A DNA stretch of 63,780 bases, filler included, from Caldilineae bacterium (GTDB taxonomy: Bacteria > Chloroflexota > Anaerolineae > DTLA01): the NCBI GenBank assembly GCA_037446815.1. It is 7 parts of 7 records of this genome, joined end to end, with 100 filler letters (N's around TTAATTAATTAA, not from the genome) between each part and the next. Parts side by side here need not be neighbours in the genome. Positions count along the whole stretch, not along the records: positions 9,378 to 18,628 come from JBBIHX010000117.1; 6 more parts are not named here. One strand, written 5' to 3'. Under the pieces are notes generated by a model. It saw nothing but the letters and a program-made list of their open reading frames with translations. It ran no database searches and was not told the DNA's origin. This document shows, piece after piece, positions 1 through 63,780 of this stretch; the stretch's first letter is position 1, and each line of letters begins with the position of its first letter. The position numbers were made by a program, and so were the translations under genes.

Positions 1-213
1 CTGCTGGCATTTGTCATTGCGAGGGCGCGGAGCGCCCGAAGCAATCTCCGGGGCGCGGGAGTGCTTCGCTTCGCTCGCAGTGACACCATGAGGATTGTCA
101 TTCTGAGCGGCGAAGCCGCGAAGAATCTCGCAACCCGAGACCCTTCGCTTCGCTCAGGGTGACAGGTGGGGAGGCGACGCGCGGGACAGACCAACACAAG
201 ATGGAGCCGAATC
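1..213. mobile_element. MITE-like element, left end cut off by window edge, carrying two CGTC-type hairpin modules in tandem
   Basis: Right terminus CCAACACAAGATGGAGCCGAATC at 191-213 matches other copies; internal TGTCATTGCGAG...CTCGCAGTGACA and TGTCATTCTGAGC...GCTCAGGGTGACA hairpins. Confidence 0.75.
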
Positions 214-7770: not shown

Positions 7771-7907
7771 CGCCCGCTGCGGGATTTCGTGTACGCAGCG
7801 GCGGGGACGAGGCCAAGATCACCGCCGCCATTTTGCTTTGGAATGCTTGGGGGGAGAAGAATGCAGTTTGCGAGATGCTCCAGCACGCCTGGACGTCGGG
7901 AGGGGCT

Positions 7908-9277: not shown

Positions 9278-9377
9278 NNNNNNNNNNNNNNNNNNNNNNN
9301 NNNNNNNNNNNNNNNNNNNNNTTAATTAATTAANNNNNNNNNNNNNNNNNNNNNNNNNNNNNNNNNNNNNNNNNNNN
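9278..9377. other. Artificial contig linker
   Basis: N-run containing TTAATTAATTAA (stops in all six frames). Confidence 0.97.
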
Positions 9378-9422
9378 GGGAGGCGGCGTGCGGGGCAGAC
9401 CAACACAAGATGAAACCAACTC
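9378..9422. mobile_element. Right end of MITE-like element at contig start
   Basis: GGGAGGCGGCGTGCGGGGCAGACCAACACAAGATGAAACCAACTC matches the right ends of the copies at 1-213 and 58232-58382. Confidence 0.7.
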
Positions 9423-9558
9423 CGGTCTTGCTATCCACACGCGGGAGGAGACGGCTCGCGAATGCGGCGGGGGCGCAGCAATGACAGCCCGTAGGCCGCA
9501 CGCGGCGACCTACGGGCCTGCCAAAAGCTGACCGCTGACGGCTTTCCGCTGTCTGCCC

Positions 9559-11028
9559 CTACCACCGATACCGCACGGTGTAGGTGATCTTCGCCTCGCC
9601 ATCCTTGGGCACGTTCACGCGGAACTCCACGCTGCTGGAGTCCAGTTTGGTGTACTCGTGGCTCTTGGCCGTGATCTCCCACTCGCTCCAGCGGAACAGA
9701 TGCTCCACCACCCGCACCTCAACGGCCTCGCTCTTGTGGTTGCGGATGCTGATCTCAAAACTCTCTTCTATCGTCCGCTCGCCCAGTTTCTTGAAATCCG
9801 TCTGCTTGCGCTCGCCCACGATGTCAAAGGCGTCGCCCAGATACAGGCGCACGCGCTCATCCCTGGGCGTGTGGTCAATCTGGTCCTCGCCGACAAACTC
9901 GGCCCCGCCGCCCGTGTCCTCTTTGTACACGCGCACGCGGCCCTTGGGCAGCGGCACGCCCAACCCGTCCGCCTCGGAATTCTTGAATTCCACCAGCACC
10001 ATGACCTTCTTGTTGCTGGTGGGGCCGTAGGTGGGATCGGTGATGGGGCCGTAGGAGTACCAGTAGCCGCTCCCCAGGCCATCGTACACGAAGATCTTCT
10101 CGGCTTTCACGCCTTCCGCGCCGACGAACTCAATCTGCTTGGTCTGCTGATCCTTGACGGTTACGGGCCGCTGGATTTCATACAGGTGGTACTCAAAGAA
10201 CTCCCGCTCGGCCACCTGTTCGGGGGTGAGGGCAGCGCCCGCCTTGCGCGCCATGTCGTAGGCGGTCAGTTCCTGGGGAGGCTGCACGCGGTGGATGTCG
10301 CCGGCGATGAGTTTCAGCCGCGCATCCTTATACGTGGCGCCGCTGCGATTGTCCACCGTAACCCAGCCGTTCAGCCCCAGCGAGGCGTCGTCGGCGGCCA
10401 GAACCACCACGTAGTCGGCGGACCACGTGATGCCGGCGGTCAGGTACGTTACCTCCACGTCATGGGCGCCGGCCTTGGCCGCGTTCACCTGCCACAGGAG
10501 CGACGGCTTGGTGATAAGCCCCTCCGGCAGCGCGGGGAACTGGAACTCCCGCACCTGGTTCGCCTTGACGACGGTTACCTTGCCGTCCGAAGCCTGAAGG
10601 ATGATGTCATCGGCCCCGCTGAGCAGTTTGCCCGTGTAGACGCTGCCATCCTCTGTAACGAGCGTGATTTGCTCATCCAGGTACTTGCGCAGGAGTTTGG
10701 CCGAGCCTACCACATCGTACTCGTAGTTCTGCTCCAGCACCGCGGTCCCCTCGGGGTCGGTCAGCGAGCGGAAGTGAACGGACGTGGGGTCAATGCCCGA
10801 GGCCACGTCGGAGAAGCGGACGAAATTCAGGCCCTTCTCCAGCGTCATCGGACGGTGATCCTTGACCAGCCCCAGGTCGGAGTTGTACACGGTCAACTCC
10901 ACGCCCGGCGACTCGGCATGGGCGGGCGTGGGCGACAACCGCGCGACCAGATTGCTGCCGGCGGAACACGCGGCCAAAGCCAGCGTGGCCACCACAACCA
11001 GGATGCGAATCCCTCGTGCGTGTCTCAT
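9559..11028 (-). CDS. DUF4139-domain lipoprotein
   Basis: Lipobox LALAAC; VELTVYN..LGLVKD, LEQNYEYD, FFEYHLY and PLPKGRVRVY motifs typical of DUF4139/DUF4140 proteins; GGAGGG RBS. Confidence 0.85.
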   Translation of the reverse strand: MRHARGIRILVVVATLALAACSAGSNLVARLSPTPAHAESPGVELTVYNSDLGLVKDHRPMTLEKGLNFVRFSDVASGIDPTSVHFRSLTDPEGTAVLEQNYEYDVVGSAKLLRKYLDEQITLVTEDGSVYTGKLLSGADDIILQASDGKVTVVKANQVREFQFPALPEGLITKPSLLWQVNAAKAGAHDVEVTYLTAGITWSADYVVVLAADDASLGLNGWVTVDNRSGATYKDARLKLIAGDIHRVQPPQELTAYDMARKAGAALTPEQVAEREFFEYHLYEIQRPVTVKDQQTKQIEFVGAEGVKAEKIFVYDGLGSGYWYSYGPITDPTYGPTSNKKVMVLVEFKNSEADGLGVPLPKGRVRVYKEDTGGGAEFVGEDQIDHTPRDERVRLYLGDAFDIVGERKQTDFKKLGERTIEESFEISIRNHKSEAVEVRVVEHLFRWSEWEITAKSHEYTKLDSSSVEFRVNVPKDGEAKITYTVRYRW

Positions 11029-11241
11029 ATTCCCTCCTAAAGGTAAGTGTAGTTTGGAACTGTGGATAGCCTTCCCTTCCGTTGTTGCGGATAGCCTGCG
11101 GCTCGTATCGGGCCGCAAAGAGCGCAAAGTTTCCTTGGATTCCTCCTTAGGCTGATTTCTCTGCGTTCTCTGTGCCTCTGCGGTGAATTCCGCTGCCCTT
11201 TGCCAACAACACTCCAAGGAGATGAGCGGACTGTGCGAGTT

Positions 11242-11270
11242 TCAGACGCCTGCCGGTGGGCATTTGTTCC
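11242..11270 (-). promoter_or_regulatory. Putative ECF-sigma promoter
   Basis: GGAAC-N17-CGTCTGA on minus strand upstream of the DUF4139 gene. Confidence 0.45.
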
Positions 11271-11392
11271 GTGCAAGCGCCGCGCGGCCTCCGCGCCGCC
11301 CGACCCCATCGCGCGCCCGTTGCGCAGGGGGCGAGAGTTGCAACGCCCAACTTCGCCGCGACGCTTGACCGCGCGTCCGGAGGACGGCCGCT

Positions 11393-11515
11393 CTGTCATG
11401 CTGAGCCGAAGGCGATACGCCCTCGCCCTTCGGGAGAGGGCTGGGGTGAGGGGCGAGATTCTTCGCTCTCCGCCGCTCAGAATGACAGTTCATGCGAACA
11501 AACTTGGGGACATCC
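11393..11515. repeat. Degenerate composite repeat: CGTC-type hairpin with an embedded CCCTC/GAGGG module and an eroded MITE end
   Basis: CTGTCATGCTGAGC...GCTCAGAATGACAG enclosing CCCTCGCCCTTCGGGAGAGGGCTGGGGTGAGGG (also at 53646-53678). Confidence 0.7.
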
Positions 11516-11528
11516 CATCGCGCCCGAC

Positions 11529-11556
11529 TTGACAAAGCGGCGCCAGGGTGTATGCT
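11529..11556 (+). promoter_or_regulatory. sigma70 promoter, probably giving a leaderless arsR mRNA
   Basis: TTGACA-N16-TATGCT; ATG 11564 lies 7 nt after the -10 with no RBS. Confidence 0.55.
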
Positions 11557-11563
11557 AATGTGC

Positions 11564-11941
11564 ATGAACGAAGACAAGCACACAGACGGATACGCCGCTA
11601 TGGCGAAACTGCACAAGGCGTTGTCTCACCCGGCGCGACTGCGGATCCTGGAGATGCTGGGGCAGTGCGGCGAAGCGTGCGTGTGCCACCTGACCGCGGC
11701 CCTGGGCCAGCGCCAACCCTACGTCTCGCAACAACTGGCCATCCTGCGCGAGGCCAACCTCATCGCCGAGCGCCGCGAGGGTACGCTCGTGTACTACCGG
11801 CTGACCGACGAGCACGTGCCAGACGTTATCGCCGCGAGCCGCAAATGGGTGGCCGGCAGGCAGGGTGAGTCGGGGCAATTCCCCACGGTGCCGGAGGGGC
11901 CCCTCCCGGGATGTTCCTGCCCCGCGTGCACCCGAGAGTAA
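11564..11941 (+). CDS. ArsR/SmtB-family transcriptional regulator
   Basis: KALSHPARLRIL, EACVCHL, SQQLAILR, VYYRL; C-terminal CSCPAC metal-binding tail. Confidence 0.92.
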   Translation: MNEDKHTDGYAAMAKLHKALSHPARLRILEMLGQCGEACVCHLTAALGQRQPYVSQQLAILREANLIAERREGTLVYYRLTDEHVPDVIAASRKWVAGRQGESGQFPTVPEGPLPGCSCPACTRE

Positions 11942-11965
11942 TCCTCTTCCGCCGTCCCTCTCCGA

Positions 11966-12012
11966 CATTCAGAATAATGCATATTTGACAATCGGGTCTT
12001 GCCAGGTATACT
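11966..12012 (+). promoter_or_regulatory. sigma70 promoter with possible ArsR operator
   Basis: TTGACA(11985)-N16-TATACT(12007); AT-rich imperfect dyad ATTCA-N6-TGCAT immediately upstream. Confidence 0.55.
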
Positions 12013-12084
12013 TGCGTGTGGGAAGACCGCCGGCACATCAGCCTTTCTGAGCCACACCGACGCACTGCGAAGGGAGGACGCACA

Positions 12085-12612
12085 ATGTTGTGCAAGGAAT
12101 ACGAATTGGAGGTCATCTCGCCACCCTGCGACCCGGGTTCGGAGCGCTGGAGCGCCTTCGCGCGGCTGCGCGAGGATATCAGCGACGTCATGCCCTATCT
12201 CAACACCGTCTGGAAGAACGCCATCTACGACCACGAGAACCACATCCTGACCGTGGTGCGCGGAGGCCGGCGCTACACCCTTCGCTCCCATGAGATCGCC
12301 ATCAGCAATCTGGAGGACCGCCAGGAGGCCCAGCGCATCGCCGAGCGCATCCTGGACGAGGTCAACCGAGTCTGGGACCGGCGGCGCGAGATCGTGCCCT
12401 CCTACGAGAAGCGGCATCAGCCCACCGTGATGGAAATCTACAAACTCCTGCCGGGCGGCAACTGCAAGCAGTGCGGCGACCCCACGTGTTTCGTATTCGC
12501 GAGCAAATTGGTGGCGGGCACGACAGACCTGACACGGTGCGTCCGCCTCTACGAAGCGGAATTCGCCGACAGGAGAGCGCGCCTGGAGGAAATCCTGGGC
12601 CTGGGCGAATGA
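12085..12612 (+). CDS. (Fe-S)-binding protein (COG4871-like, C-terminal FeS domain)
   Basis: LLPGGNCKQCGDPTCFVFA...C motif; GGAGG RBS. Confidence 0.85.
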   Translation: MLCKEYELEVISPPCDPGSERWSAFARLREDISDVMPYLNTVWKNAIYDHENHILTVVRGGRRYTLRSHEIAISNLEDRQEAQRIAERILDEVNRVWDRRREIVPSYEKRHQPTVMEIYKLLPGGNCKQCGDPTCFVFASKLVAGTTDLTRCVRLYEAEFADRRARLEEILGLGE

Positions 12613-12636
12613 GTCGCGCGATGCAGGAGGTAGGCG

Positions 12637-13530
12637 GTGTTTGAACGGGTGCTATTCCCCACAGACTTCTCCGCCTACGCAAACGCGGTGTTCGCGTGCC
12701 TGCCCGACCTGAAATCGGCGGGCATGCGCCATGTGCACTTGCTCGCCGTCATCGCCACGTCCCAGGTGCCGCTGGGCCACACGGCTTGGAACGAGGACTC
12801 GCTGGCCCGCGTCAAGTGGAGCATGGAGGAGCACCTGCACATCGCGTCCATGGCGCTGGAGGGGCAGGGCTTTTCCACCAGCACCGAGGTCGTGTACGGC
12901 AACCCCGCGCGGGAAATCGTGCGCGTTGCGCAAGAAGAACGGGTAGATATGATCGTCATGGGCGCGCAGGGCCAGAGCGCGTTCCAGGAAATCCTCCTGG
13001 GCAACACCGCCTTTGATGTCCTGCGCATGTCGCCCGTGCCTGTGCTTATTGAGAAGTTTGAGGTTGTGCGGGAACTGGGAAAGGTGGAGTGCCGGCGCGT
13101 GTGCGGCGCGACGTTTCAGCGGGTGCTCCACCCCACAGACTTCTCAGAGTGCGCGCGTGCTGCTTTCAACATCGTCAAGCGGCTCAAGGGCGCGGGAACC
13201 GAAGAGGTGCTCCTGGCGCATGTGCAGGACGAGCGCGTCATGCGCCGGCGCAGCCCTGAGCAACTGGAGGAGTTTGACCGCGAAGACGTGGCCCGCCTGG
13301 AGCGCATGGCCCGCGACCTGGCGCTCTACCGCCTGCCCGCCAAGGTCATCCTCAGGCACGGCCTGCCCCATGTGGAGACGCTTAAGGTGGCCGACGAAGA
13401 GGACGCCTCGCTCATCGTCTTGAGCGTATGCGGGCGCAACGTGATGAACGAAATCCTGGTGGGAAGCACGTTTGAGAAGATCGTGCGCACCAGCCGCAGG
13501 CCCGTATTGGCCGTCCATTGTGAGAGGTAA
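12637..13530 (+). CDS. Tandem-domain universal stress protein
   Basis: Two USP domains (FERVLFPTDFS...GAQG...LLGN; RVLHPTDFS...LVGS). Confidence 0.92.
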   Translation: MFERVLFPTDFSAYANAVFACLPDLKSAGMRHVHLLAVIATSQVPLGHTAWNEDSLARVKWSMEEHLHIASMALEGQGFSTSTEVVYGNPAREIVRVAQEERVDMIVMGAQGQSAFQEILLGNTAFDVLRMSPVPVLIEKFEVVRELGKVECRRVCGATFQRVLHPTDFSECARAAFNIVKRLKGAGTEEVLLAHVQDERVMRRRSPEQLEEFDREDVARLERMARDLALYRLPAKVILRHGLPHVETLKVADEEDASLIVLSVCGRNVMNEILVGSTFEKIVRTSRRPVLAVHCER

Positions 13531-13531
13531 A

Positions 13532-13987
13532 ATGGCAGACACGCAGCACCGCAAACGGGTACTGGTCATCTGCACCGGCAACTCGGCTCGGTCGCAGATG
13601 GCCGAAGCGCTGCTGCGACACCTGGGCGGGGATCGCCTGGAGGTCTTCAGCGCCGGTTCCGCCCCCGCGCCTGCCGTACACCCCCTCGCCGTGCGCGCCA
13701 TGGCCGAGATGGGCCTGGACATCTCCGCCCACCGCCCGAAACCGCTGGCCGACTTCCTCGGCCAACCCTTTGACTATGTCATCGCCGTCTGCAGCAAAGC
13801 GGCCGAGGCGTGCCCCTTCTTCCCAGGCCCGGCCGAGCGCATTCACTGGTTCTACGATGACCCCGCGGCCGTGGAGGGCAGCGAAGCCGAGCGCATGGCC
13901 GCCTTCCGCGCCGTCCGCGACGACCTGAAGGTTCGCATCGCCGAATGGCTGACATCCCTGCCGAGGCGAGCCGATGCCCCCCTATGA
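13532..13987 (+). CDS. arsC: Thioredoxin-coupled arsenate reductase (LMW-PTP fold)
   Basis: CTGNSARSQMAE P-loop, resolving pair VCSKAAEACP, DDPA. Confidence 0.88.
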   Translation: MADTQHRKRVLVICTGNSARSQMAEALLRHLGGDRLEVFSAGSAPAPAVHPLAVRAMAEMGLDISAHRPKPLADFLGQPFDYVIAVCSKAAEACPFFPGPAERIHWFYDDPAAVEGSEAERMAAFRAVRDDLKVRIAEWLTSLPRRADAPL

Positions 13988-14033
13988 CAGCACCCGTGCG
14001 CCCAGCCTCAAACCTCATGAGAACGGAGAAGCC

Positions 14034-15944
14034 ATGACACAACCCAAACCCATTGCCCGCCTGCTCACCCTGATTGCCATCCTGGCCCTGGCCCTAGTGC
14101 CGACGCTGGCGCACGCCCAGCAGCCGGTCGTTCGCGCCGTGCTGTTCTACTCGGACACGTGCCCCATCTGCCACACCGTTCTGGAGCAGGTTCTGCCGCC
14201 CCTCCAGGCGCAGTACGGCAGCCAACTGGAAATCGCCAAGGTGGAGATTACGCCCCCCGCCAACTACGAACTCCTCCTGCGCATGGAGCAGACGCACGGC
14301 GTCCCGCCGGAGAAAGGCGTTGTGCCCGAACTGTTCATCGGCGACCGCGTGCTTTTCGGAGCCGATGAGATTCGCGACAACCTGCCGTCGCTCATCCAAT
14401 CCTACGCGGCGCAGGGCGGCGTGGACTGGCCCGCGGGCTACGGCGAGCAGACGGGGCCTATCACATGGCCCCCCACCGGCGCCCGGCCCACGCCCAAAGC
14501 GTGCCACATCTGCGACGAGGGCGACCCCGTCGTGAAGATGTACTTCTTCTGGAGCAGCCTCTGCCCCGAATGCCACCGCGTGCAGGATGAGGTGCTCAAG
14601 CCCTTGCAGCAGCGGTACGACCGCCAGTTGGTGGTGGACGCGCGCGACGTAGAGAAGTCTCCCGCCGACTACGACCTGCTGACGGCGCTGGAGCGGCAGT
14701 TCGGCACCGGCGAAGGCGCGTTCCCCGTCATCTTCATCGGCGACCACGTGCTGCACGGCGAGCAGGCCGCCCGCGAGCAATTGGCCGCGCTGGTGGAGTA
14801 CTACATGAACGAGGGCGGCGTGGACTTCCCGAAACTCACCGGCCCCGCCGCCCCATCCGGCAATCCGACCGCCGGGCAGCCTGCCATCCATCTGGCCTAC
14901 TTCTTCCAGGTCGGCTGCCACGAATGCGACCGCGCCCAATATGACCTCAAGTACCTGCAGAGCAAGTATCCGCAGTTGCAGATTCACGAGTACGACATCC
15001 GTGAGCACGCCGCCCTGGCCGAGTGGCTGGGCGAACGCAACCGCGTGCCCCTGAACAAGCGCCTCACCGCTCCCGCCGCCTTCGTCGGCTCCGATTTCCT
15101 GCTGGGCGACGGCATCAACGTGCAGGCGCTAGAGGCCATCTTGCAGAAGTACGTCGCGACGGGCAGCGAAGCCTACTGGCAGGAACAGGAGGACGCCGCC
15201 CAGGCCGGCGAGAGCATCCTGAGCCGCTTCCGCTCGTTCGGCGCGCTCACGGTTGTGGCCGCCGGCCTGGTGGACGGACTGAACCCCTGCGCCTTCGCCA
15301 CCATCGTCTTCTTCATCTCCTACCTGGCCTTCACCGGACGCAAAGGCCGCGACATCCTGCTGGTGGGCGGCATGTTCGCGCTGGGCGTGTTCCTGGCATA
15401 CCTGGGCGTTGGCGTGGGCCTACTCAAGTTCCTGGCAAGCCTGCCGTTCCTGCCGGCCATCAGCCGCTACCTGTACGGCTTCACGGCGGCCCTGTGCCTG
15501 CTGCTCGCTGTGGGCAGCCTCTACGATTGGTACCAGGCGCGGCGTGGGCGACCGGAGGCGATGAAACTCAAACTGCCCACGCGGATGCGCCGCTGGGTCA
15601 ACCGCGTCATCCGCGAGGGAGCCAGCGCGCGGGCCATCGCGGGCGTCGCATTCATCACCGGCGCGGTTGTGTCCCTGATAGAGTTGGCGTGCACCGGCCA
15701 GGTGTATCTGCCCACCATCCTGTTCGTGCTCGGCGTGCCGGCCCTGCGGGTGCGCGCGCTGACCTATCTCGTCGTGTACAACCTGGCGTTCGTCCTGCCC
15801 CTCATCATCGTGTTCCTCACGGCCTACTGGGGCACGACATCGGAGCGCCTGGGGCAGTTCATCAGCCGCCGCGCCGGCGCCATCAAACTGGCCACGGCGG
15901 GGCTATTCGCCCTGCTCGCCGCCTGGATGATCACGTTCCTGTAG
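14034..15944 (+). CDS. Secreted triple thioredoxin/glutaredoxin-like domains fused to a CcdA/DsbD-like membrane domain
   Basis: Signal peptide; FYSDTCPIC, FWSSLCPEC and FFQVGCHEC plus a linker CHIC; TM domain with GLVDGLNPCAF and ELACTGQVY cysteines. Confidence 0.85.
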   Translation: MTQPKPIARLLTLIAILALALVPTLAHAQQPVVRAVLFYSDTCPICHTVLEQVLPPLQAQYGSQLEIAKVEITPPANYELLLRMEQTHGVPPEKGVVPELFIGDRVLFGADEIRDNLPSLIQSYAAQGGVDWPAGYGEQTGPITWPPTGARPTPKACHICDEGDPVVKMYFFWSSLCPECHRVQDEVLKPLQQRYDRQLVVDARDVEKSPADYDLLTALERQFGTGEGAFPVIFIGDHVLHGEQAAREQLAALVEYYMNEGGVDFPKLTGPAAPSGNPTAGQPAIHLAYFFQVGCHECDRAQYDLKYLQSKYPQLQIHEYDIREHAALAEWLGERNRVPLNKRLTAPAAFVGSDFLLGDGINVQALEAILQKYVATGSEAYWQEQEDAAQAGESILSRFRSFGALTVVAAGLVDGLNPCAFATIVFFISYLAFTGRKGRDILLVGGMFALGVFLAYLGVGVGLLKFLASLPFLPAISRYLYGFTAALCLLLAVGSLYDWYQARRGRPEAMKLKLPTRMRRWVNRVIREGASARAIAGVAFITGAVVSLIELACTGQVYLPTILFVLGVPALRVRALTYLVVYNLAFVLPLIIVFLTAYWGTTSERLGQFISRRAGAIKLATAGLFALLAAWMITFL

Positions 15945-16129
15945 CAGGCATGGGGACGCGGATGGGCCTCGCCCCTCCTGCAGGGACACCGCGGCGACTC
16001 CCCTGCTGAGGCGCGAAGGATCTCCTTCCCCAATCGTGTAGATTCGTGTTATCCGTGGATACACTCCAGCGCACGCCTCGCCTGCGGCCTTCGGCTGCCC
16101 CAATGACAGAAGCAGGGCGGCATGACAAT

Positions 16130-16487
16130 GATTCGGTTCCAAACTGTGTTGGTGAACCGTAGGCGCACTCTCTTCGCGTGTCATTGCGAGCGAAGCGAAG
16201 CCATCCCACGCTGCGGCGATTGCTTCGGGCGTTCCGCGCCCTCGCAATGACGGCCACCCGCAGACACTGGAACCGAATGCGGGGCGCCATCGCGTAGGGG
16301 CGACCGATCGGTCGCCCCTACTCTCCCCAATCCCCGCAATCCGTGCCATCCGTGGATGCACCCCAACCCTGTTCGCGTGGATTCGCGTTATTGACGGTTG
16401 CACTCCTCCGAAGTTGCCTCGTGTCGTGCGGCATTGTGCGCGACGCCAAGCCGCGTGAACTGCACCAACACTTTTTGGAACCGAATG
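16130..16487. mobile_element. Long-form MITE (358 bp) with 8-bp target-site duplication
   Basis: Termini GATTCGGTTCCAAACTGTGTTGG / CCAACACTTTTTGGAACCGAATG; ATGACAAT at 16122-16129 and 16488-16495; ~200 bp of interior near-identical to 46546-46902. Confidence 0.85.
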
Positions 16488-16636
16488 ATGACAATCGCGA
16501 TTTTGGTACAAGCGCGCATTCCGTAGTATTATCAATCGCACCAATCGGAGCCGACCGATGCGCAGGTGGGGTGGGAGTCGCCCGCGTGTATTGGCCCAGA
16601 TTCAACTCCCATGTGCGCCCGAGAGTGAGGTGAAGC

Positions 16637-17713
16637 GTGGCGAAGAAACGGAAGAAGAAGCAGACCCCAGGGCAGGCCCCGCGCCCGGCAGAGGCGACGA
16701 CCCAGAAGGGCGAAACGAAGCCAAAGCCCAAGAAGAAGGCAGCCCCCAGCGCGGGCATCAAACGCTGGATCGCGCCTGTGGTGCTGGCGCTCGTCGTGGT
16801 GGCGGCCCTCATCACCGCGCAGGCGCTCATCCGCCGCAACGCCGCGCGTCCCACCGGCCCCTGGACCCTGACCATCCTGCACACCACCGATGTGGAGGGC
16901 TACGTAGACCCCTGCGGCTGACGGCCCCCCAAGGGGGGTGTGGCCCGTCGGGCCACCGCCATCAAGGACTACCGCGCCAAGACGCCCTATCTCCTCGTCC
17001 TGGACGCGGGCGACGCGCTCTTCGGCCAGCCGGTCTCCGACATCAGCCAGGGCAAGGCGCTCACCGAGGCGATGAACCTGATGAAGTACGACGCCATGGC
17101 CATCGGCGAGCGGGATTTGGCCCACTTTCCGGAGTTGCTGGATCGTTCCCGCGAGGCCAAGTTTGCCTTCCTGTCGGCCAACCTGGTGTACGCCAGCACG
17201 GGCAAGCCAGTCTTCACGCCCTACGTCGTGCAGAACGTGGGCGGGCGCAAGGTTGCCATCATCGGCCTGACACCGGCCGACGACACGTTCAAATCCTTCG
17301 TCCCATCGTCCGCCGACATCACGGCGAAAGATCCCGTGGAGACCGCCCGTGAGTACGTCGCCAAGGCCCGCGCCGAGAAGGTGGACGCCGTCGTCATCCT
17401 GTCGCACCTGGGCAACGTCATGGATCGCAAGATCGCAACCGAGGTGAACGGCATCACGGCCATCGTGGGCGGGCACTCCTACGACCTGCTCCAAGAGACG
17501 CTGCAACTGAACAACACGGTCATCGGGCAGGCAGGGTACGGCGGCGAATGGCTGGGCGAGATCACCGTGGACTTTGACGGCGAGGGCAACGTGGTCTCGG
17601 CCAAAGCCGGCGTCATCCCGCTCTCTGCCGACTATGCCGACGATCCCGAACTGGCCGCGTTGGCCGCCCGCTACAACGCCGCCCTGCCCCCGACGCCAAC
17701 GCTCCAGCCCTAG
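16637..17713 (+). CDS. UshA-like (metallophosphoesterase-fold) selenoprotein, Sec at codon 95 (TGA 16919-16921), 358 aa
   Basis: ORFs 16637-16921 and 16940-17713 are in one frame, separated only by TGA in LTILHTTDVEGYVDPCG-U-RPPKGGVARRAT; DAGD, FLSANL, LSHLG and GGHS motifs continue the same fold; hairpin after TGA; yqeB next. Confidence 0.88.
16922..16960 (+). promoter_or_regulatory. Candidate bacterial SECIS element
   Basis: GGT-GTGGCCC-GTC-GGGCCAC-C-GCC stem-loop; the G-starting apical loop begins 25 nt after UGA. Confidence 0.7.
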
Positions 17714-17732
17714 CGGGCAAGGAGGCTTTGCC

Positions 17733-18542
17733 GTGGCCGTGTTGGGCAGAATCATCACCGTCGTGGTGAAGGGAGGCGGGGATTTGGCGTCCGGCGTCGC
17801 CTGGCGTCTGTGGAACTGCGGGTTCCACGTTGTCGTTACCGAAATCCCCGCCCCCACCGTCATTCGCCGCAAGGTTGCCTTCGCCGCGGCCGTATGGGAG
17901 GGCGAGACGGTGGTAGATGGCGTGCGCGCCCGTAGAGTAGAAGGCGCAGAGGGCGTTCGGGCCGCCTGGGATGAGGGCGTTCTGCCCGTCATCGTGGACC
18001 CCGAAGCCACCATTATCCGTGCGCTGAAGCCCGACGTAGTGGTAGACGCCATCCTGGCCAAGCGCAACCTGGGCACGCGCATCACCGATGCTCCCCTCGT
18101 CATCGGGCTTGGGCCGGGGTTTACCGCCGGAGAGGATGTGCACGCGGTGATAGAGACCATGCGCGGCCATACCCTGGGGCGCGTGATTTGGCGCGGCCAG
18201 GCGCTGCCCAACACGGGCGTCCCGGGCGAAGTGGGCGGATATGCCGAGCAGCGCGTGGTGCGCGCCCCGTGCGCGGGGACGTTCCGGGCCGTCCGCGATA
18301 TCGGCGACATGGTGAACGAGGGCGACGTGGTTGCCTACGTGGACGCCGAGCCGGTGCGCGTGCGGCTGAAGGGCGTCCTGCGCGGGCTGCTCCGCGATGG
18401 GATGGCCGTGCACCCCAACATGAAGGTTGGCGACGTGGACCCCCGCGCCGCCCGCGAGCACTGCTTCACCATCTCGGACAAGGCGCTGGCCATCGCTGGC
18501 GGCGTGCTGGAAGCCATTCTCCACGCCCTGCGCGAGGGCTGA
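17733..18542 (+). CDS. yqeB: Selenium-dependent molybdenum hydroxylase system protein YqeB
   Basis: KGGGDLASGVA, PTVIRRKVAF, VVDAILAKRNLGT, IETMRGHTLG, KVGDVDPR, ISDKALAIAGGVLEA; AAGGAGG RBS. Confidence 0.93.
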   Translation: MAVLGRIITVVVKGGGDLASGVAWRLWNCGFHVVVTEIPAPTVIRRKVAFAAAVWEGETVVDGVRARRVEGAEGVRAAWDEGVLPVIVDPEATIIRALKPDVVVDAILAKRNLGTRITDAPLVIGLGPGFTAGEDVHAVIETMRGHTLGRVIWRGQALPNTGVPGEVGGYAEQRVVRAPCAGTFRAVRDIGDMVNEGDVVAYVDAEPVRVRLKGVLRGLLRDGMAVHPNMKVGDVDPRAAREHCFTISDKALAIAGGVLEAILHALREG

Positions 18543-18628
18543 CATCCCCCGTCCCTGGCGGCGCAGCGAAGGAATCCCCAGGGGGTGTATTCACGGATGA
18601 CACGGATGGCGCGGGATTGCGCATGTAG

Positions 18629-18728
18629 NNNNNNNNNNNNNNNNNNNNNNNNNNNNNNNNNNNNNNNNNNNNTTAATTAATTAANNNNNNNNNNNNNNNN
18701 NNNNNNNNNNNNNNNNNNNNNNNNNNNN
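18629..18728. other. Artificial contig linker
   Basis: N-run with TTAATTAATTAA. Confidence 0.97.
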
Positions 18729-18823
18729 TCGTGCCCGTGGCGTTGGAAGTGGGGTCGCGGTTTGCGATCCGCGAAGGCGGGCGGACGGTCGGCGCAGGCG
18801 TCATCACCGAGATCGTGGAGTAG
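18729..18823 (+). CDS. tuf: Elongation factor Tu, C-terminal fragment
   Basis: [34 protein letters not shown]. Confidence 0.95.
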
Positions 18824-18869
18824 CCTACACGGAGAGGGGGAAGGAAGCCGAGGCTTCCGGATTTGAGAT

Positions 18870-19037
18870 ATGGCGAAGAAAAAGGACATCCGAGCAGTCA
18901 TCACGCTGGCTTGCACCGAGTGCAAGGAGCGCAACTATACGACGCAGAAGAACCGTCGCAATGACGCGGGCCGGCTGGAGTTGAAAAAGTACTGCAGCCG
19001 CTGCCAGAAGCACACCTTGCACCGGGAGACGAAGTAG
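18870..19037 (+). CDS. rpmG: 50S ribosomal protein L33 (zinc-binding form)
   Basis: [55 protein letters not shown]; too short for the ORF track. Confidence 0.96.
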
Positions 19038-19076
19038 GAGCACGCCCGGCAGGCCCGAAAGGGCTTGCCTGTGCAC

Positions 19077-19150
19077 AGGCCAGTAGCTCAACTTGGCAGA
19101 GCATCGCTCTCCAAAAGCGAGGGTTGCGGGTTCAAGTCCTGCCTGGCCTG
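19077..19150 (+). tRNA. tRNA-Trp (CCA)
   Basis: Acceptor AGGCCAG/CTGGCCT, anticodon arm TCGCT-CTCCAAA-AGCGA, T-loop GGTTCAAGTCC; usual position between rpmG and secE; 3' CCA not encoded. Confidence 0.96.
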
Positions 19151-19257
19151 CCTCTGGTGGAGAAGACACCGCCGCACGAGGCCTGCAGTCCGAATGTGCG
19201 CGGTGTCTTGAAATGTTTGCATCCGAACTTATCACGAGTGCTTGCCGAGGGTGAAGA

Positions 19258-19467
19258 GTGGCGAAGACGTCAGCACCGAAAAAAGAGAACCGTATAGTCC
19301 GCTACCTGCGGGAGACGCGGGCCGAATTGGCCAAGGTTACCTGGCCCACACGTGAGGAGGCATTGCGCCTCACCGGCATCGTCCTGGCGGCGACGGTGGG
19401 GTTTGCCCTGTTCCTGGGGGTTGTGGACTACATTCTCTCCAAGTTGTTCGCGTTGCTGGTAAAGTAG
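19258..19467 (+). CDS. secE: Preprotein translocase subunit SecE
   Basis: ETRAELAKVTWPTREE plus one TM helix. Confidence 0.95.
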   Translation: MAKTSAPKKENRIVRYLRETRAELAKVTWPTREEALRLTGIVLAATVGFALFLGVVDYILSKLFALLVK

Positions 19468-19518
19468 CGGATTCGGAGCGACTCGCCCAGGCGTAGATTC
19501 AGAGCGTTCAGGAAGTTG

Positions 19519-20241
19519 ATGGAAGAAGAGAAAGCAGTATCGCCCGAGAATCCAATAGAAGAGCCCGCGGAGTCCATGCCCGCGCCGGAGGAAGCCGAGC
19601 CGGTGGTCGAGGACGCCGTGGAAGCGGCTGCCGAGGATACGGCCGCAAGCGGTGAGGAGACCGCCGAGGCCGAATCCGAGGATGCCGAAAGCCCGTACCA
19701 GAAGGCCTGGTTTGTCATCCACACCTACTCCGGCTACGAGAACAAGGTCAAGAAGAACCTGGAGCAGCGCATTGAATCCATGGGGATGCGGGAGTGGATT
19801 CTCCAGGTTGTGGTCCCGACCGAAGAGGAGATAGAAATCCGCGACGGGCAGCGCCGCATGGTGGAGCGCCGCATTTTCCCGGGCTACGTCCTTGTGCAGA
19901 TGCGCGTCCCGAAAGATTCGCTGACCCCAACCGAGCAAGCGTGGTATGTGGTGCGGAATACGCCGGGCGTAACGGGCTTCGTCAGTTCGGGGACCAAGCC
20001 CATCCCGCTGCGCCAGGAAGAGATTGACAAGATCATCAAGCGGATGGAGGCCGAGGAGCCGACCATCAAGGTCAGTTTCCACCGAGGCGAGAAGGTGCAG
20101 ATTATCAGCGGCCCCTTCGCCGAGTTCATGGGAACGGTGGACAGCATCAGCATGGAGAAGGGCAAGGTTACCGTGCTCGTGTCCTTCTTCGGGCGGGAGA
20201 CGCCCGTGGAAGTGGATTTGACCCAGGTTTCCAGACTGTAA
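19519..20241 (+). CDS. nusG: Transcription termination/antitermination factor NusG with acidic N-terminal extension
   Basis: WFVIHTYSGYENKVK, FPGYVLV, VRNTPGVTGFV, KOW (ISGPF), FFGRETPVE. Confidence 0.96.
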   Translation: MEEEKAVSPENPIEEPAESMPAPEEAEPVVEDAVEAAAEDTAASGEETAEAESEDAESPYQKAWFVIHTYSGYENKVKKNLEQRIESMGMREWILQVVVPTEEEIEIRDGQRRMVERRIFPGYVLVQMRVPKDSLTPTEQAWYVVRNTPGVTGFVSSGTKPIPLRQEEIDKIIKRMEAEEPTIKVSFHRGEKVQIISGPFAEFMGTVDSISMEKGKVTVLVSFFGRETPVEVDLTQVSRL

Positions 20242-20291
20242 CGTACACCGCGGGGCGGGCTTTCGCCTGCTCGGCAGGTTGAGGAGGATGC

Positions 20292-20717
20292 ATGGCAAAG
20301 AAAGTTGTCGCGGTCGTAAAACTGCAGATTGAAGCCGGCAAGGCGAACCCAGCGCCCCCGGTGGGCCCTGCCCTGGGCCAGCATGGTCTGAACATCATGC
20401 AGTTCTGCAAGGAATACAATGCCCGGACGGCCAACCAGGCCGGGATGATCATTCCGGTGGAGATCACCGTCTATCAGGATCGGTCGTTCACGTTCGTAAC
20501 CAAGACGCCGCCGGTGCCCGACCTGTTGCGGCGCGCCGCGGGCGTGCCCAAGGGCTCGGGCGAACCCAACCGCAAGCCCGCCGGCTCCATCACCCGCAAG
20601 CAGTTGCGGGAGATCGCCGAAATCAAGATGAAAGACCTCAACGCGCTGGACATTGAAGGCGCCGAGCGCATGATTGAGGGCACCGCCCGAAGCATGGGCA
20701 TCACTATCAAAGACTAA
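20292..20717 (+). CDS. rplK: 50S ribosomal protein L11
   Basis: [25 protein letters not shown]. Confidence 0.98.
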
Positions 20718-20739
20718 CCCCCGGCCCTAATGCGGGCCA

Positions 20740-20777
20740 GTGGGAGGGCCTCGCCCGACGGGGTCCAATGGAACCAC
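20740..20777 (+). promoter_or_regulatory. L1-binding autoregulatory RNA site upstream of rplA
   Basis: GTGGGAG...AACCAC kinked hairpin just before the rplA RBS. Confidence 0.65.
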
Positions 20778-20790
20778 AAAGGGAGGAAAG

Positions 20791-21504
20791 ATGCCAAAGA
20801 GAGGAAAGAAGTACCAAGAAGTCGCAAAACTGATTGACCGAGACAAGGTCTACTCGCCGGAAGAGGCGATGGCGCTGGTGAAGCAGGTCGCGTACACCAA
20901 GTTTGACCCCACGGTGGAGTTGCACATGCGCATGAACCTGGACCCGCGCCAGGCCGACCAGCAGATTCGCGGCGTCGTGCCCCTGCCGGCAGGCACAGGC
21001 AAGCCCAAGCGGATTCTGGTCTTCGCCGAGGGCGAGGCGGAACGCATCGCGCGGGAGGCCGGCGCCGATTACGTCGGCAGCGACGAGTTCATCGCCAAGA
21101 TTCAGGAGGGCTGGTTTGAGTTTGACGTGGTGCTGGCCGTGCCCCAGATCATGGGCAAGATCGGACGCCTGGGCCGCCTGCTCGGCACCCGCGGCCTGAT
21201 GCCCAGCCCGAAGACGGGGACCATTGTACAGCCCGAGGACTTGCCCCGCACCATTGAGGAGATTCGCAAGGGGCGCGTAGAGTACCGGCTGGACAAGACC
21301 AGCAACCTGCACATTCCCATCGGCAAGGCCAGTTTTACGGAGCAGCAACTGCTGGAGAATTTCGCCGCGGTGATGGAAGCCATCGTGCGCGCCAAGCCCG
21401 CGAGCGTGAAGGGCGCCTATATCAAGAAGATCGCGCTGGCCCCGACCATGGGGCCGTCGGTGCGCGTGGACGTCTTCCAGGCGATGAACCTGCGCCTGAC
21501 GTAG
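20791..21504 (+). CDS. rplA: 50S ribosomal protein L1
   Basis: [26 protein letters not shown]. Confidence 0.98.
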
Positions 21505-21538
21505 CGCCCATACGTTCCCAACCGAATATGTCCCTGTG

Positions 21539-21712
21539 CCCATGACAGCAGGTGCACTTCGGTGCGTAAGTCCTGCCGAGGCAAAGGATGCGAATGCCCC
21601 ATGCGTTCGGCGTTGGGCGCGCGGAAACGGTTCGCGCACCCGACGCTGTCGGAGTGTATGCCCGCATGGATGGCCCTCAAGCCTTTGCGTCGGCTGGCGC
21701 AAAGGCTTTTTT
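21539..21712 (+). ncRNA. L10 leader (ribosomal protein autoregulatory RNA)
   Basis: CCATGACAGCAGG...TAAGTCCTGCCGAGG core upstream of rplJ, followed by an attenuator hairpin. Confidence 0.8.
21679..21712 (+). terminator. Intrinsic terminator/attenuator within the L10 leader
   Basis: GCCTTTGCG-loop-CGCAAAGGC followed by TTTTTT. Confidence 0.8.
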
Positions 21713-21766
21713 GTTTGCGGAAGGGCATCCCAATTTGGAACTCAAGTCGTAAGGAGGTGATACAAT

Positions 21767-22300
21767 TTGGCGATAACGAAAGAGATCAAGGAAACCCGTG
21801 TTGCGCAGTACAAAGAGATGTTGGCTTCCTCGCAGGCGGTGGTCGTAACGCAGTACCATGGGCTGACGATGGGGCAGTTGAACGACCTGCGGGCGCGGCT
21901 TCGGCCCACAGGCGGGCGGTTCCAGGTTACGAAAAACACCCTGTTCCGCCTGGCCCTGGCCGAGCAGAAAAGCCCCGCGCTGGACGACATCCTCGTGGGG
22001 CCCACGGCCGTAGCCTACCTGAGCGGCGACATCGCAAGCGGCATCAAGGCGCTCATCGCCTTCGCCGAGGAAACCAATGCCATTGAGGTGAAGGGCGGGC
22101 TATTCGGCGACCGCGTGCTGTCCGCGGAGGACGTCGTTACCCTGTCCAAACTGCCGTCCCGCGAAGAACTGCTGGCGCAGGTGGTATCGCGGCTGCAGGC
22201 TCCGCTCTACGGCCTGGTCAACGTGCTCAGTGGCCCCATGCGAGGGCTGGTGTATGCCCTCAAAGCGCGCCAGGATCAACTGGCGAACACTGCCGCCTAG
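21767..22300 (+). CDS. rplJ: 50S ribosomal protein L10
   Basis: YHGLT..QLNDLR, VTKNTL, LSKLPSREELLA; TTG start after TAAGGAGGTGA. Confidence 0.96.
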   Translation: MAITKEIKETRVAQYKEMLASSQAVVVTQYHGLTMGQLNDLRARLRPTGGRFQVTKNTLFRLALAEQKSPALDDILVGPTAVAYLSGDIASGIKALIAFAEETNAIEVKGGLFGDRVLSAEDVVTLSKLPSREELLAQVVSRLQAPLYGLVNVLSGPMRGLVYALKARQDQLANTAA

Positions 22301-22342
22301 TCGGCACATCACAATCTGAAAACCAAAAGGGAGGAAAATAGA

Positions 22343-22735
22343 ATGACGAAGGAAGAGATTTTGCAGGCGATTGAGAAGATGACGGTCTTGGAACTGGCCG
22401 AACTGGTGAAGGCGCTGGAAGAGAAGTTCGGCGTCAGCGCCGCTGCGCCCGTTGCCTTTGCGGCCATGCCTGGTGTTGCGGCTGCAGGCGCTGCTGGGGC
22501 TGCCGCGCCCGCCGCTGAGGAGAAGACCGAGTTTGACGTCATCCTCAAGGAAGTCGGCCCCAACAAGATTCAGGTCATCAAGGTCGTGCGCGAACTGACC
22601 AACCTGGGCCTGAAGGAAGCCAAGGAGTTGGTGGACGGCGCTCCGGCCACCATCAAGACCGGCGTCCCGAAGGAAGAGGCCGAGGCTGCCAAGGCCAAAC
22701 TGGAAGAGCAGCAGGCCGTCGTAGAACTGAAGTAG
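22343..22735 (+). CDS. rplL: 50S ribosomal protein L7/L12
   Basis: [30 protein letters not shown]. Confidence 0.98.
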
Positions 22736-22759
22736 TTCGCCCACCTGGTCGCGTCAACT

Positions 22760-22788
22760 GTAGGGGCAGGTCTCAGACCTGCCCCTAC
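22760..22788. repeat. GTAG-type REP palindrome between convergent genes (possible bidirectional terminator)
   Basis: GTAGGGGCAGGTCTCAGACCTGCCCCTAC; relatives at 41609-41660, 16294-16321, 43095-43121 and 46709-46736. Confidence 0.8.
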
Positions 22789-22791
22789 GAC

Positions 22792-25274: not shown

Positions 25275-25276
25275 GG

Positions 25277-27819: not shown

Positions 27820-27848
27820 ATCATAACACAGGCGGGCCGGAATGTAAA
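27820..27848 (-). promoter_or_regulatory. sigma70 promoter
   Basis: TTTACA-N17-TATGAT on minus strand, 15 bp from a MITE end. Confidence 0.6.
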
Positions 27849-27863: not shown

Positions 27864-27918
27864 GATTCGGTTTCATCTTGTGTTGGTGAAACGCATGGAC
27901 ACTCTCCTCGTGTGTCGT
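27864..27918. mobile_element. MITE end at contig break
   Basis: GATTCGGTTTCATCTTGTGTTGGTGAAACGCATGGACACTCTCC, near-identical to 46546 onward. Confidence 0.8.
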
Positions 27919-28018: not shown

Positions 28019-28042
28019 CGGTGTCAAGCGAAATTCACCGCG

Positions 28043-28200: not shown

Positions 28201-28380
28201 GACTCGGTTCCAAAGCCTGTTGGCATCTACTGTCATTCTGAGCGGCGGAGAGCGAAGAATCTTGGGATAACGTGCGACGCACCTCGGAGGTGCGTCGCAC
28301 GTAACCCTCTCCGCGCGGAGGTAAAGCCACCGCGCTAAAAAGCCCAAATTCCTCTGCGAACTCTGCGCCCCCGCGGTGCC
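28201..28380. repeat. Second MITE left end plus nested palindromic repeats
   Basis: GACTCGGTTCCAAAGCCTGTTGG, half CGTC module, hairpin ACGTGCGACGCACCTC-G-GAGGTGCGTCGCACGT (28270-28302; also 36987-37019). Confidence 0.7.
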
Positions 28381-36644: not shown

Positions 36645-36673
36645 ATTATACGTTGGCTGCGGGCCTGTGCCAA
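36645..36673 (-). promoter_or_regulatory. sigma70 promoter
   Basis: TTGGCA-N17-TATAAT on minus strand, 14 bp from a MITE-like end at 36688. Confidence 0.65.
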
Positions 36674-36687: not shown

Positions 36688-37200
36688 GATTCGGTTTCAC
36701 GGTTGTTGGTGCCCACTGTCATCTGAGCCGCGAAGCGGCGAAGAATCTCGCTGCCCGCAGGCGCGGCGGGGCCACCCCCCGTGCGGGGCTAAAGCCGCCG
36801 CGCTACGAGCGGAAGCCCCTTTGTGGCTAACCCCAGCCCGCAGGGCTTTATGCGCTCAGCCCGATGCTTTAGCGTCGGGCGGCCACGCCACACCTCGCCC
36901 TGCCCCCATCCGCGCCATCCGTGGTGTACGGGGGACCGGCCGGTCGTCCGTACAGGCGCGGCGGGGGACATCTCCCCCGTGGGACAACGTGCGACGCACC
37001 TCCGAGGTGCGTCGCACGTACTCTCCGCGCGGGGCCAAAGCCACCGCGCTACGAGCGGAAGCCCCTTCGGGGCTGTTCTGCGTTCGCGTGGATTCGCGGC
37101 TCTGGTGCTGTCATTCTGAGCCGCGGAGCGCCGGGAGCAATCTCCCCCTCACCCCAGCCCTCTCCCGATGGGCGAGGGAGCGGCGCCTCATCGCGGGCGC
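36688..37200. repeat. Dense mosaic of palindromic repeat modules beginning with a MITE-like terminus
   Basis: GATTCGGTTTCACGGTTGTTGG end, two CGTC half-modules, two GGGGC(T/C)AAAGCC.CCGCGCTACGAGCGGAAGCCCC copies, ACGTGCGACGCACC palindrome, CCCTCACCCCAGCCCTCTCCC module. Confidence 0.75.
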
Positions 37201-37371: not shown

Positions 37372-37400
37372 TTGCCAAAGGCGCTGGGCTATGCTAGAAT
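37372..37400 (+). promoter_or_regulatory. sigma70 promoter of htrA
   Basis: TTGCCA-N17-TAGAAT with TGn extension, 16 bp after the MITE end. Confidence 0.65.
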
Positions 37401-46500: not shown

Positions 46501-46530
46501 ATTGTACACGCACTTGTGCGGATATGTCAA
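46501..46530 (-). promoter_or_regulatory. sigma70 promoter pointing off the contig end
   Basis: TTGACA-N18-TACAAT on minus strand, 15 bp from the MITE end at 46546. Confidence 0.65.
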
Positions 46531-58231: not shown

Positions 58232-58382
58232 GATTCGGTTCCAAAGTCTGTTGGCACCTACTGTCATTCTGAGCGGCGAAGCCGCGAAGAATCTCGCTGA
58301 CCGAGATGCTTCGCCTTCGGCTCAGCATGACAGAGTGGGGAGGCGGCGCGCGGGACAGACCAACACAAAATGAAACCGACTC
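58232..58382. mobile_element. Short-form MITE (151 bp) with the alternative hairpin cargo
   Basis: GATTCGGTTCCAAAGTCTGTTGG...CCAACACAAAATGAAACCGACTC enclosing CTGTCATTCTGAGC...GCTCAGCATGACAG; no convincing TSD. Confidence 0.8.
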
Positions 58383-58456
58383 CACCCACCCCGCCCGCTT
58401 GGCCTTCGCCGCCGTTTCGGAGTATAATCACCCCGATACTCGCATCGGAGGATTGC

Positions 58457-63660: not shown

Positions 63661-63780
63661 GATTCGGTTCCAAAGTCTGTTGGTATTTGTCATTGCGAGG
63701 GCGCGGAGCGCCCGAAGCAATCGCCGGGGCGTGAGGTTGCTTCGCTTCGCTCGCAACGACACACGAGGAGAGTGCCCTTG
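63661..63780. mobile_element. MITE, right end cut off by window edge
   Basis: GATTCGGTTCCAAAGTCTGTTGGTATTTGTCATTGCGAGG..., near-identical to 28043-28192. Confidence 0.8.

Follow-up and report, generated by a model that had tools for sequence, protein, structure and literature searches.

Miniature inverted-repeat elements at a fixed distance upstream of sigma70-type promoter-like sites in a Caldilineae bacterium

We analysed a 63,780-base stretch of DNA from a Caldilineae bacterium (GenBank assembly GCA_037446815.1), referred to below as the window, which carries a family of miniature inverted-repeat transposable elements (MITEs), seven ends of which lie 14-16 nt from the outward-facing -35 hexamers of sigma70-type promoter-like sites. 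This association with promoters goes beyond chance and is a real feature of the DNA. Most probably, the MITEs are moved in trans by an insertion sequence (IS) of about 1.5 kb that has the same termini and belongs to the Mutator superfamily, and their insertion is directed to a constant position upstream of sigma70-type promoters.

MITE termini and promoter spacing in the window

An earlier note on this DNA had described about a dozen ends sharing imperfect inverted termini of ~23 bp. We searched the window with the left-type and right-type terminus patterns of that note, allowing up to 3 mismatches, and then with a looser core pattern combined with inspection. The left-type pattern gave 6 matches and the right-type pattern 7, as against none in 100 shuffles, and the full search raised the number of terminus copies to 17, in agreement with the description. 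Read inward, the consensus of this imperfect inverted repeat is 5'-GAyTCGGTTyCA-N5-TGTTGG. The 17 termini belong to ~11 MITE copies, which measure 150-358 bp. Outer ends account for thirteen of the termini (213, 9422, 16130, 16487, 27864, 28043, 36688, 37355, 46546, 46902, 58232, 58382 and 63661), two are internal termini of composite elements (16279 and 46694) and two abut each other (28192 and 28201). In the window, automatic pairing of termini went wrong in four cases: it linked ends across a spacer (27864-28192), took in a chance site carrying 3 mismatches at 58078, and twice joined the outer to the internal terminus of a composite (16130-16279 and 46546-46694); the tallies for the window were therefore taken without it. 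The copies and their target duplications, none of which was assigned a strand, are as follows.

1..213: E1, cut by the window start; two tandem palindromic modules, right terminus at 191-213, no promoter there
9378..9422: E2, 45-nt terminal piece at a contig start; no promoter at its end
16122..16129: left target duplication of E3, ATGACAAT
16130..16487: E3, 358-bp composite made of a 150-bp unit (16130-16279, with an internal terminus at 16257-16279) and a 208-bp extension to a third terminus
16488..16495: right target duplication of E3, ATGACAAT
27864..27918: E4, 55-nt terminal piece at a contig end
28043..28192: E5, complete 150-bp MITE; 8-bp duplication TCACCGCG at 28035-28042 and 28193-28200
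28201..28260 (right limit approximate): E6, one-ended; a terminus and half a module, then other short palindromic repeats
36688..36770: E7, one-ended; terminus with a 1-nt deletion, then a mosaic of other short repeats up to the contig end
37301..37355: E8, 55-nt terminal piece at a contig start
46546..46902: E9, 357-bp composite with the architecture of E3 and the promoter at the opposite end
46538-46545 and 46903-46910: duplication of E9, GCCTGCAT and GCTTGCAT, identical at 7/8 positions
58232..58382: E10, complete 151-bp MITE with an alternative central palindromic module
63661..63780: E11, truncated at the window end; its visible end lacks a promoter at 14-16 nt but has a promoter-like site 36 nt away

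Seven of the outer ends face an outward-directed -35 hexamer at nearly the same distance (d, counted from the element end to the hexamer).

16503..16532, plus strand: promoter-like site TTGGTA-18-TATTAT, 15 nt from the E3 end at 16487, upstream of the open reading frame (ORF) starting at 16637
27820..27848, minus strand: promoter-like site TTTACA-17-TATGAT, 15 nt from the E4 end at 27864, upstream of the gene at 25277-27793
28022..28027, minus strand: TTGACA hexamer, 15 nt from the E5 end at 28043; its -10 region was removed by the contig start at 28019
36645..36673, minus strand: promoter-like site TTGGCA-17-TATAAT, 14 nt from the E7 end at 36688, upstream of the ORF at 34894-36615
37372..37400, plus strand: promoter-like site TTGCCA-17-TAGAAT, 16 nt from the E8 end at 37355, upstream of an HtrA-like protease gene at 37430-38596
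46501..46530, minus strand: promoter-like site TTGACA-18-TACAAT, 15 nt from the E9 end at 46546; the gene is lost at the contig start at 46491
58399..58428, plus strand: promoter-like site TTGGCC-18-TATAAT, 16 nt from the E10 end at 58382, upstream of gltX

All seven distances had been given in the earlier note and proved exact, as did the presence of a TAnnnT -10 box 17-18 nt beyond the -35 hexamer at six of the seven ends. The ends at 213, 9422 and 63661, which the same note had set aside as not fitting, are each the sole visible end of a copy cut by a boundary. Each of the three complete copies with readable flanks (E3, E9 and E10) has exactly one promoter-facing end, and among copies with a single visible end 3/6 face a promoter, the half that is expected.

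The outward flanks were then scored with a position weight matrix (PWM) for sigma70 promoters at a cut-off of >=13, using the outer ends whose flank is 71 nt or longer (n=11). Five of these 11 ends reached the cut-off, at d = 14, 15, 15, 16 and 16, compared with a background of 1.27e-4 per position in the window (binomial P ~3.7e-15). A genome-wide distance check of this kind had been proposed in the earlier note; within the window, the matches are concentrated at 14-16 nt. When the window flanks were read inward, no match reached 13. A sixth end of the same kind, at 46546, has a flank of 55 nt and scores 18.0 at d = 15. An independent promoter tool reported 19 sites in the window (5+7+2+5) against a summed shuffle mean of 8.1, and six of the 19 are MITE-adjacent, as are five of the ten that have at least 10/12 consensus matches. 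The strong sites (>=10/12) with no MITE terminus 14-16 nt upstream, all on the plus strand, lie at 29187-29214, 11985-12012, 11529-11556, 53697-53725 and 7288-7317 and are candidate empty target sites.

Target duplications, element anatomy and assembly context

Target duplications of 8 bp flank three of the four complete copies (E3 with 8/8, E5 with 8/8 and E9 with 7/8 identical positions). On the promoter side, the duplication fills the first 8 nt outside the element and is followed by 6-8 unrelated nt and then by the -35 hexamer. This position of the duplication, inside the interval from element end to -35, shows that the promoter belongs to the target DNA rather than to the element. The spacer, the -10 box and the downstream sequence differ from copy to copy. 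E3 and E9 share one internal orientation and have their promoters at opposite ends, from which it follows that insertion occurs in both orientations. In the composites the duplication is found at the outermost termini, so that the whole composite moves as one unit. The right-hand duplication of E5 is directly followed by the terminus of E6; E5 is thus wedged exactly beside that terminus, which implies that E6 formerly lay 15 nt from the same TTGACA and that one site was used twice.

An outward promoter carried by the element itself, with the true terminus further out, would also be expected to show a constant distance between terminus and -35. We give this explanation next to no probability, because the 8-bp duplications directly abut GAyTCGG and would fall inside the supposed extension, because the stretch from terminus to -35, the spacer and the sequence past the -10 are unrelated among copies, and because each complete copy has only one promoter end, which can be either of the two (E3 versus E9).

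The shared terminal inverted repeats, the target duplication of fixed length and the small size without a transposase gene identify the copies as MITEs. Complete copies are either single units of 150-151 bp (28043-28192 and 58232-58382) or composites of 357-358 bp (16130-16487 and 46546-46902); across the family as described, composites range from 230 to 358 bp. The E3 and E9 composites are 94% identical over 300 nt (repeat match 46589-46888). In an alignment of copies the ends are conserved, and the interiors consist of one or more long palindromic modules of two types that can be interchanged or stacked, E10 having the alternative type and E1 both. The 150-nt units have single-strand folding energies of -33.5 to -40.4 kcal/mol, which correspond to z scores between -3.1 and -4.8 relative to shuffles. 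At gathering thresholds, Rfam matched only a tRNA in the window, and the hairpin modules hence fit no described RNA family; a literature search with the module sequences returned unrelated primer matches only. A scan of the window for terminators gave no excess over shuffles, and we accordingly make no claim that the MITEs act as terminators.

Palindromic modules also occur without MITE termini, alone or in mosaics with other small repeats, at 11395-11486, 28230-28400 and 36700-37200. Among these terminus-free repeats are those of the GTCATTCTGAGC... types, one perfect hairpin, ACGTGCGACGCACCT, and units of AAAGCCACCGCGCTA. A broader set of intergenic palindromes seems to have supplied the interiors of the MITEs. 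A 42-nt repeat unit of the TCCCCAATC...GGATACACTCCA type is found in tandem inside the composites (16324-16407 and 46739-46822) and once in the upstream flank of E3, just outside the element (16027-16068).

The window is a concatenated draft assembly of ~65% G+C and not one stretch of chromosome. It consists of pieces of mostly ~9.2 kb, which are joined by artificial spacers, and features that seem to cross a spacer are not true neighbours in the cell, as the spacers join separate contigs.

1-9277, 9378-18628, 18729-27918, 28019-37200, 37301-46390, 46491-55563 and 55664-63780: window pieces
9278-9377, 18629-18728, 27919-28018, 37201-37300, 46391-46490 and 55564-55663: six artificial spacers, N44-TTAATTAATTAA-N44
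53543-53642: plain N100 scaffold gap within the sixth piece

About 8/14 contig or window ends fall in, or within 60 nt of, a MITE copy; many copies stand at contig ends because short-read assembly breaks in a high-copy repeat. Together with the concatenated make-up of the window, this is what would be seen if the whole pattern were an artefact in which repeats collapsed at contig ends had been fused to unrelated flanks. Such an origin is extremely unlikely: E3, E10 and E9 (the last 55 nt from a contig start) lie within contigs with unique flanks on both sides, every junction between flank and terminus is contained in a single contig, and the pattern recurs in independent assemblies, among them a closed chromosome of a metagenome-assembled genome (MAG; locus L028, see below).

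Related elements and their transposase in other genomes

A scan of reference genomes with a degenerate 22-mer returned at least 53 loci, numbered here with the prefix L; one of these, L036, was dropped because its flank duplicates that of L025. The results that follow refer to the matches listed, of which 29 were taken as family loci and 24 as chance matches in unrelated phyla. Most family loci belong to MAGs of Anaerolineae, Anaerolineales, Caldilineales and other Chloroflexota; one is labelled Planctomycetota and one Actinomycetota. By the consensus rule, a promoter is present within 0-40 nt at 27/63 family ends, those of the window included; 15 of these ends have d = 2-8, 11 have d = 13-16 and one has d = 36. 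Among the chance matches, 3/24 had a promoter (d = 2, 14 and 32), all in genomes of 30-36% G+C. With the PWM, 17/42 full-flank ends in these loci score >=13, against a background of 3.0e-4 per position, at d = 2, 3, 4 (four ends), 5 (seven ends), 7, 8, 14 and 15, and no match reaches 13 in the inward reading of the same loci. In 14/20 paired elements, one end has a site scoring >=13 at d = 2-9 or 14-15. Three elements (L001, L003 and L039) have a strong promoter at both ends and thus sit between divergent promoters; these are MITEs of ~116-140 bp (L001 344-459, L003 2000-2136 and L039 2000-2139), and at each end a -35 hexamer lies 3-9 nt away. Perfect 8-bp duplications flank 7/20 paired elements (L010, L022, L032, L043, L044, L046 and L050).

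The ends fall into two spacing classes. In the first, which comprises the window, L008, L022 and L028, the distance is 14-16 nt, and L022 holds the same internal module as the window copies. In the second, found in other genomes, it is ~4-5 nt (range 2-8) and the duplication extends into the first bases of the -35, as with TCAAATCA in L032 and GTGAATTG in L046. The two classes are ~10 nt apart, which is about one helical turn. The 15-nt and 5-nt classes are not cleanly told apart by any of the terminal-sequence features compared, and since there is one intact IS of each (L008 and L004, respectively), no signature of the transposase can be derived.

These distances bear on the idea of random insertion followed by selection that spared only copies close upstream of promoters. 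In its favour, every copy is intergenic, and an insertion within a gene would be purged. Nevertheless, we consider this account very improbable. Selection cannot yield a precision of +/-1 nt, and positions 20-100 nt upstream of the -35 would be at least as harmless, yet 26/27 promoter-adjacent ends have d = 2-8 or 13-16. An identical site was, moreover, used by two separate insertions (E5 and E6).

The search for a full-length IS with the same termini, which had been suggested for this DNA, was successful in the reference genomes: L004 (1520 bp) and L008 (1548 bp) are full ISs bounded by the termini of the MITEs. They encode proteins of 433 and 448 aa when read from stop to stop, with 61% identity between the two; the family transposase has 429-448 aa. 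L029 is a frameshifted copy, L015 an internally deleted one, and L026, L028, L040 and L052 are fragments. In the full ISs the promoter lies at the 5' end (L008, L015) or the 3' end (L004, L029) of the transposase gene. That the window itself holds no transposase had been noticed earlier, and tblastn with the family transposases likewise finds nothing there.

Both proteins match the Pfam family Transposase_mut (PF00872) with 35.9 and 35.0 bits (gathering score, 21), the same family is precomputed for most of 120 listed homologues, and both have an N-terminal zinc ribbon with four cysteines. Across 28 aligned members D191, D254, C275-x-x-H278 and E374 are invariant. They would match the DDE and C-x-x-H signature given for Mutator-like transposases in PMC3942029, and we read them as putative catalytic residues. 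Predicted helices span 259-418 in an AlphaFold2 model that was computed from the 28-sequence alignment and has a mean pLDDT of only 51.9. The family is large, with 1579 proteins at E <=1e-3 among 8000 scored candidates, typically of 427-435 aa and in most cases encoded on contigs of 1.4-4.5 kb; of the cluster representatives, 622 fall at E <=1e-3 and 150 at <=1e-30. A tblastn search of the transposase against 72,556 plasmids gave no match, and a profile search of the PDB returned 6xg8 only, at a marginal E = 0.74.

When the 28 members were compared with NCBIfam, IS256 (28/28, best E = 6.7e-13), ISH6 (28/28), IS1249 (21/28) and ISL3 (20/28) were matched, all far under the curated cut-offs, and nine distant full-length relatives likewise reached no more than 63 bits for IS256 against a cut-off of 150. 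The ~23-bp termini, the 3' end ...CCGAGTC and the 8-bp duplications agree with a Mutator-like element. Judged from these profile matches, the transposase is best described as an unnamed lineage of the Mutator superfamily that is nearest to IS256 and ISH6 and falls below the cut-offs of ISLre2, ISKra4, IS256 and ISH6.

Mechanism, known systems and neighbouring genes

Fixed-distance insertion upstream of bacterial promoters is rare; it has been linked to two Mutator-like lineages and to one proposed transposase motif. According to the part of Guerillot et al. 2014 (PMC3942029) covered here, TnGBS and ISLre2 insertions are found upstream of sigma-A promoters, 15-17 bp from the -35, in a single orientation with IRr by the promoter, and the ISKra4 group, with thirteen ISs including Ktedonobacter elements, inserts upstream of promoters in both orientations and has inverted repeats (IRs) of near-perfect symmetry as well as a conserved transposase motif with an Asp between domains N1 and N2 (Fig. 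8 of that article). The same part of that article gives IS256 insertion as random, describes Mutator-like elements as having IRs of 18-39 bp, a terminal C, 8-9-bp duplications and circular intermediates, and notes a preference of Pack-MULEs for 5' gene ends; it contains none of the terms MITE, miniature and non-autonomous.

The elements described here resemble TnGBS and ISLre2 (p-MULT 3) in their Mutator-superfamily DDE transposase, their terminal C, their distance from the promoter (14-16 nt here versus 15-17 bp) and the length of the duplication (8 bp versus 8-9 bp). In contrast to ISLre2 and TnGBS, they insert in both orientations, their hosts are Chloroflexota rather than Firmicutes, the window copies are non-coding MITEs, and the 2-8 nt class of other genomes is a misfit. 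ISLre2 (NCBIfam NF033529, cut-off 200) was moreover matched by only 1/28 members, at E = 0.059, and by 2/9 distant relatives, with 16.1 and 22.4 bits. The earlier note had proposed a non-autonomous derivative mobilised by a TnGBS/ISLre2-type transposase. Its Mutator-like, promoter-aimed nature is upheld by the 8-bp duplications and by the ISs with the same termini in relatives, whereas the assignment to the ISLre2/TnGBS type is not, given the NCBIfam scores and the two orientations.

With the ISKra4 group (p-MULT 4; ISKra2/4/5/6) the elements share that both end types face promoters, that the IRs are near-symmetric and that they occur in Chloroflexi. Their insertion behaviour is closest to this group, which also inserts both ways, but the 25 NCBIfam families listed for the 28 members do not include ISKra4 (NF033572, cut-off 205), which reaches 15.4 bits in 1/9 distant relatives. 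IS256 (p-MULT 1; solved structure 6xg8, 'Mutator family transposase') likewise has a PF00872 core and an 8-bp duplication, and its second Asp is also followed by C-x-x-H. No other named family scores as high, and NCBIfam also lists IS256 variants with an N-terminal zinc-binding domain, yet scores of 39-63 bits (L008 and L004: 39.4-42.5) stand against a cut-off of 150 for NF033543. Like classical bacterial MITEs, the copies are short, bounded by terminal inverted repeats, flanked by duplications, strongly self-pairing and probably dependent on the transposase of an IS. Classical bacterial MITEs include the Correia elements, RUP and Nezha; to our knowledge, none of these families docks at a fixed distance from a -35 hexamer.

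In the mechanism that we propose, an IS of ~1.5 kb with the same termini would supply the zinc-ribbon DDE transposase of 429-448 aa to the MITEs in trans. Insertion would generate the 8-bp duplication and leave 14-16 nt between the element end and the first T of the downstream -35, in either orientation, with the promoter kept intact and the sequence upstream of about -50 replaced. By analogy with TnGBS, ISLre2 and ISKra4, the site may be found through the promoter-bound RNA polymerase holoenzyme or through a promoter-specific DNA shape, and transposition may proceed by copy-out/paste-in via a circular intermediate. The position upstream of a promoter would be a low-cost landing place. Since the host genome is not among the listed loci, we infer mobilisation in trans within this host from its relatives.

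The transposase could instead read the promoter DNA itself, either as a loose TTGnnn-N17-TAnnnT motif or as a bend, with no part played by RNA polymerase. The tight spacing of 14-16 nt with both hexamers always there, and the second class ~10 nt closer in relatives, would each fit a protein that measures from a feature of the DNA. We regard this as possible but rather unlikely: the -35 hexamers vary (TTGGTA, TTTACA, TTGGCC, TTGCCC), the duplicated 8-bp sites and the 6-8 nt that follow share no common sequence, a motif ~45 bp wide is a poor fit for one transposase, and for TnGBS a contact with the RNA polymerase initiation complex has been proposed (PMC3942029, in the part covered).

Several points weigh against insertion upstream of promoters by a same-terminus Mutator-superfamily IS. 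The promoters are consensus matches only and as such predicted, and the PWM frequencies are approximations that we supplied ourselves, the independent consensus rule of the promoter tool giving the same picture. E10 has no recognisable target duplication and neither has the IS of L008. Outside the window the sample is small, and family loci were told from chance matches by eye, on the terminus and the title of the record. Six of the 20 paired elements in these loci lack a strong promoter at the expected distances, two having weaker sites and four none. The window holds no full-length IS, as its tblastn search with family transposases indicates, and full ISs with these termini come only from related MAGs, the host's own genome not being among the loci listed. 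Contact with RNA polymerase, finally, is suggested by analogy alone.

More tentatively, and with slightly less than even confidence, we propose that the transposases may form an unnamed zinc-ribbon branch of the Mutator superfamily, outside ISLre2 and ISKra4, that targets sigma-A promoters in Chloroflexota and has two sub-lineages docking ~15 and ~5 nt from the -35, and that MITEs may occupy about half of the best consensus promoters in this genome and replace the UP-element or activator region genome-wide. If so, the MITEs could be used as ready-made promoter markers in uncultured Anaerolineae. Promoter targeting itself has already been published; in the literature found, we came across no description of non-autonomous derivatives, of a second spacing class or of such a density of copies at strong promoters. 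Our literature search, to which subscription journals were outside coverage, returned no promoter-docking MITEs, no such transposase lineage and no second spacing class. A further lineage with a sister class shifted by ~10 bp would offer natural variants for studying how a transposase senses a promoter. As a practical matter, MITEs of this family break short-read assemblies of Chloroflexota, and their termini mark likely promoters in organisms without transcription data. The hairpins could also insulate promoters or alter their UP region, as hypothesised in the earlier note, and if copies alter promoter strength they would constitute a genome-wide regulatory layer.

Genes for an HtrA-like protease, for GltX and for a nucleotidyl-transferase/phosphomannomutase are found by Pfam downstream of MITE-adjacent sites; the first two had already been named as neighbours of docked copies. 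The positions of the last two are as follows.

Frame 58370-59956: gltX, start likely near 58460
25277-27793: nucleotidyl-transferase/phosphomannomutase gene (Pfam)

The ORFs from 16637 onward and at 34894-36615 have a third-position G+C of 0.87-0.89 (0.89 for the latter) and, like the genes identified by Pfam, are counted as real genes. At 16637-17713 on the plus strand, two ORFs in the same frame, with third-position G+C of 0.87 and 0.89, are split by a single TGA at 16919-16921 (...VDPCG-TGA-RPPKGG...). Judging from this context, the TGA, which lies in the gene served by the E3-adjacent promoter-like site, may be read through as selenocysteine. Elsewhere in the window, a 2251-aa ORF at 1015-7770 on the plus strand is made of ~320-nt tandem repeats that encode bacterial Ig-like domains (Big_13, Big_3_2 and Big_3_3), and repeats coding for Pro/Thr-rich linkers recur at 9171-9279, 40390-40510, 41848-42088 and 53306-53462.

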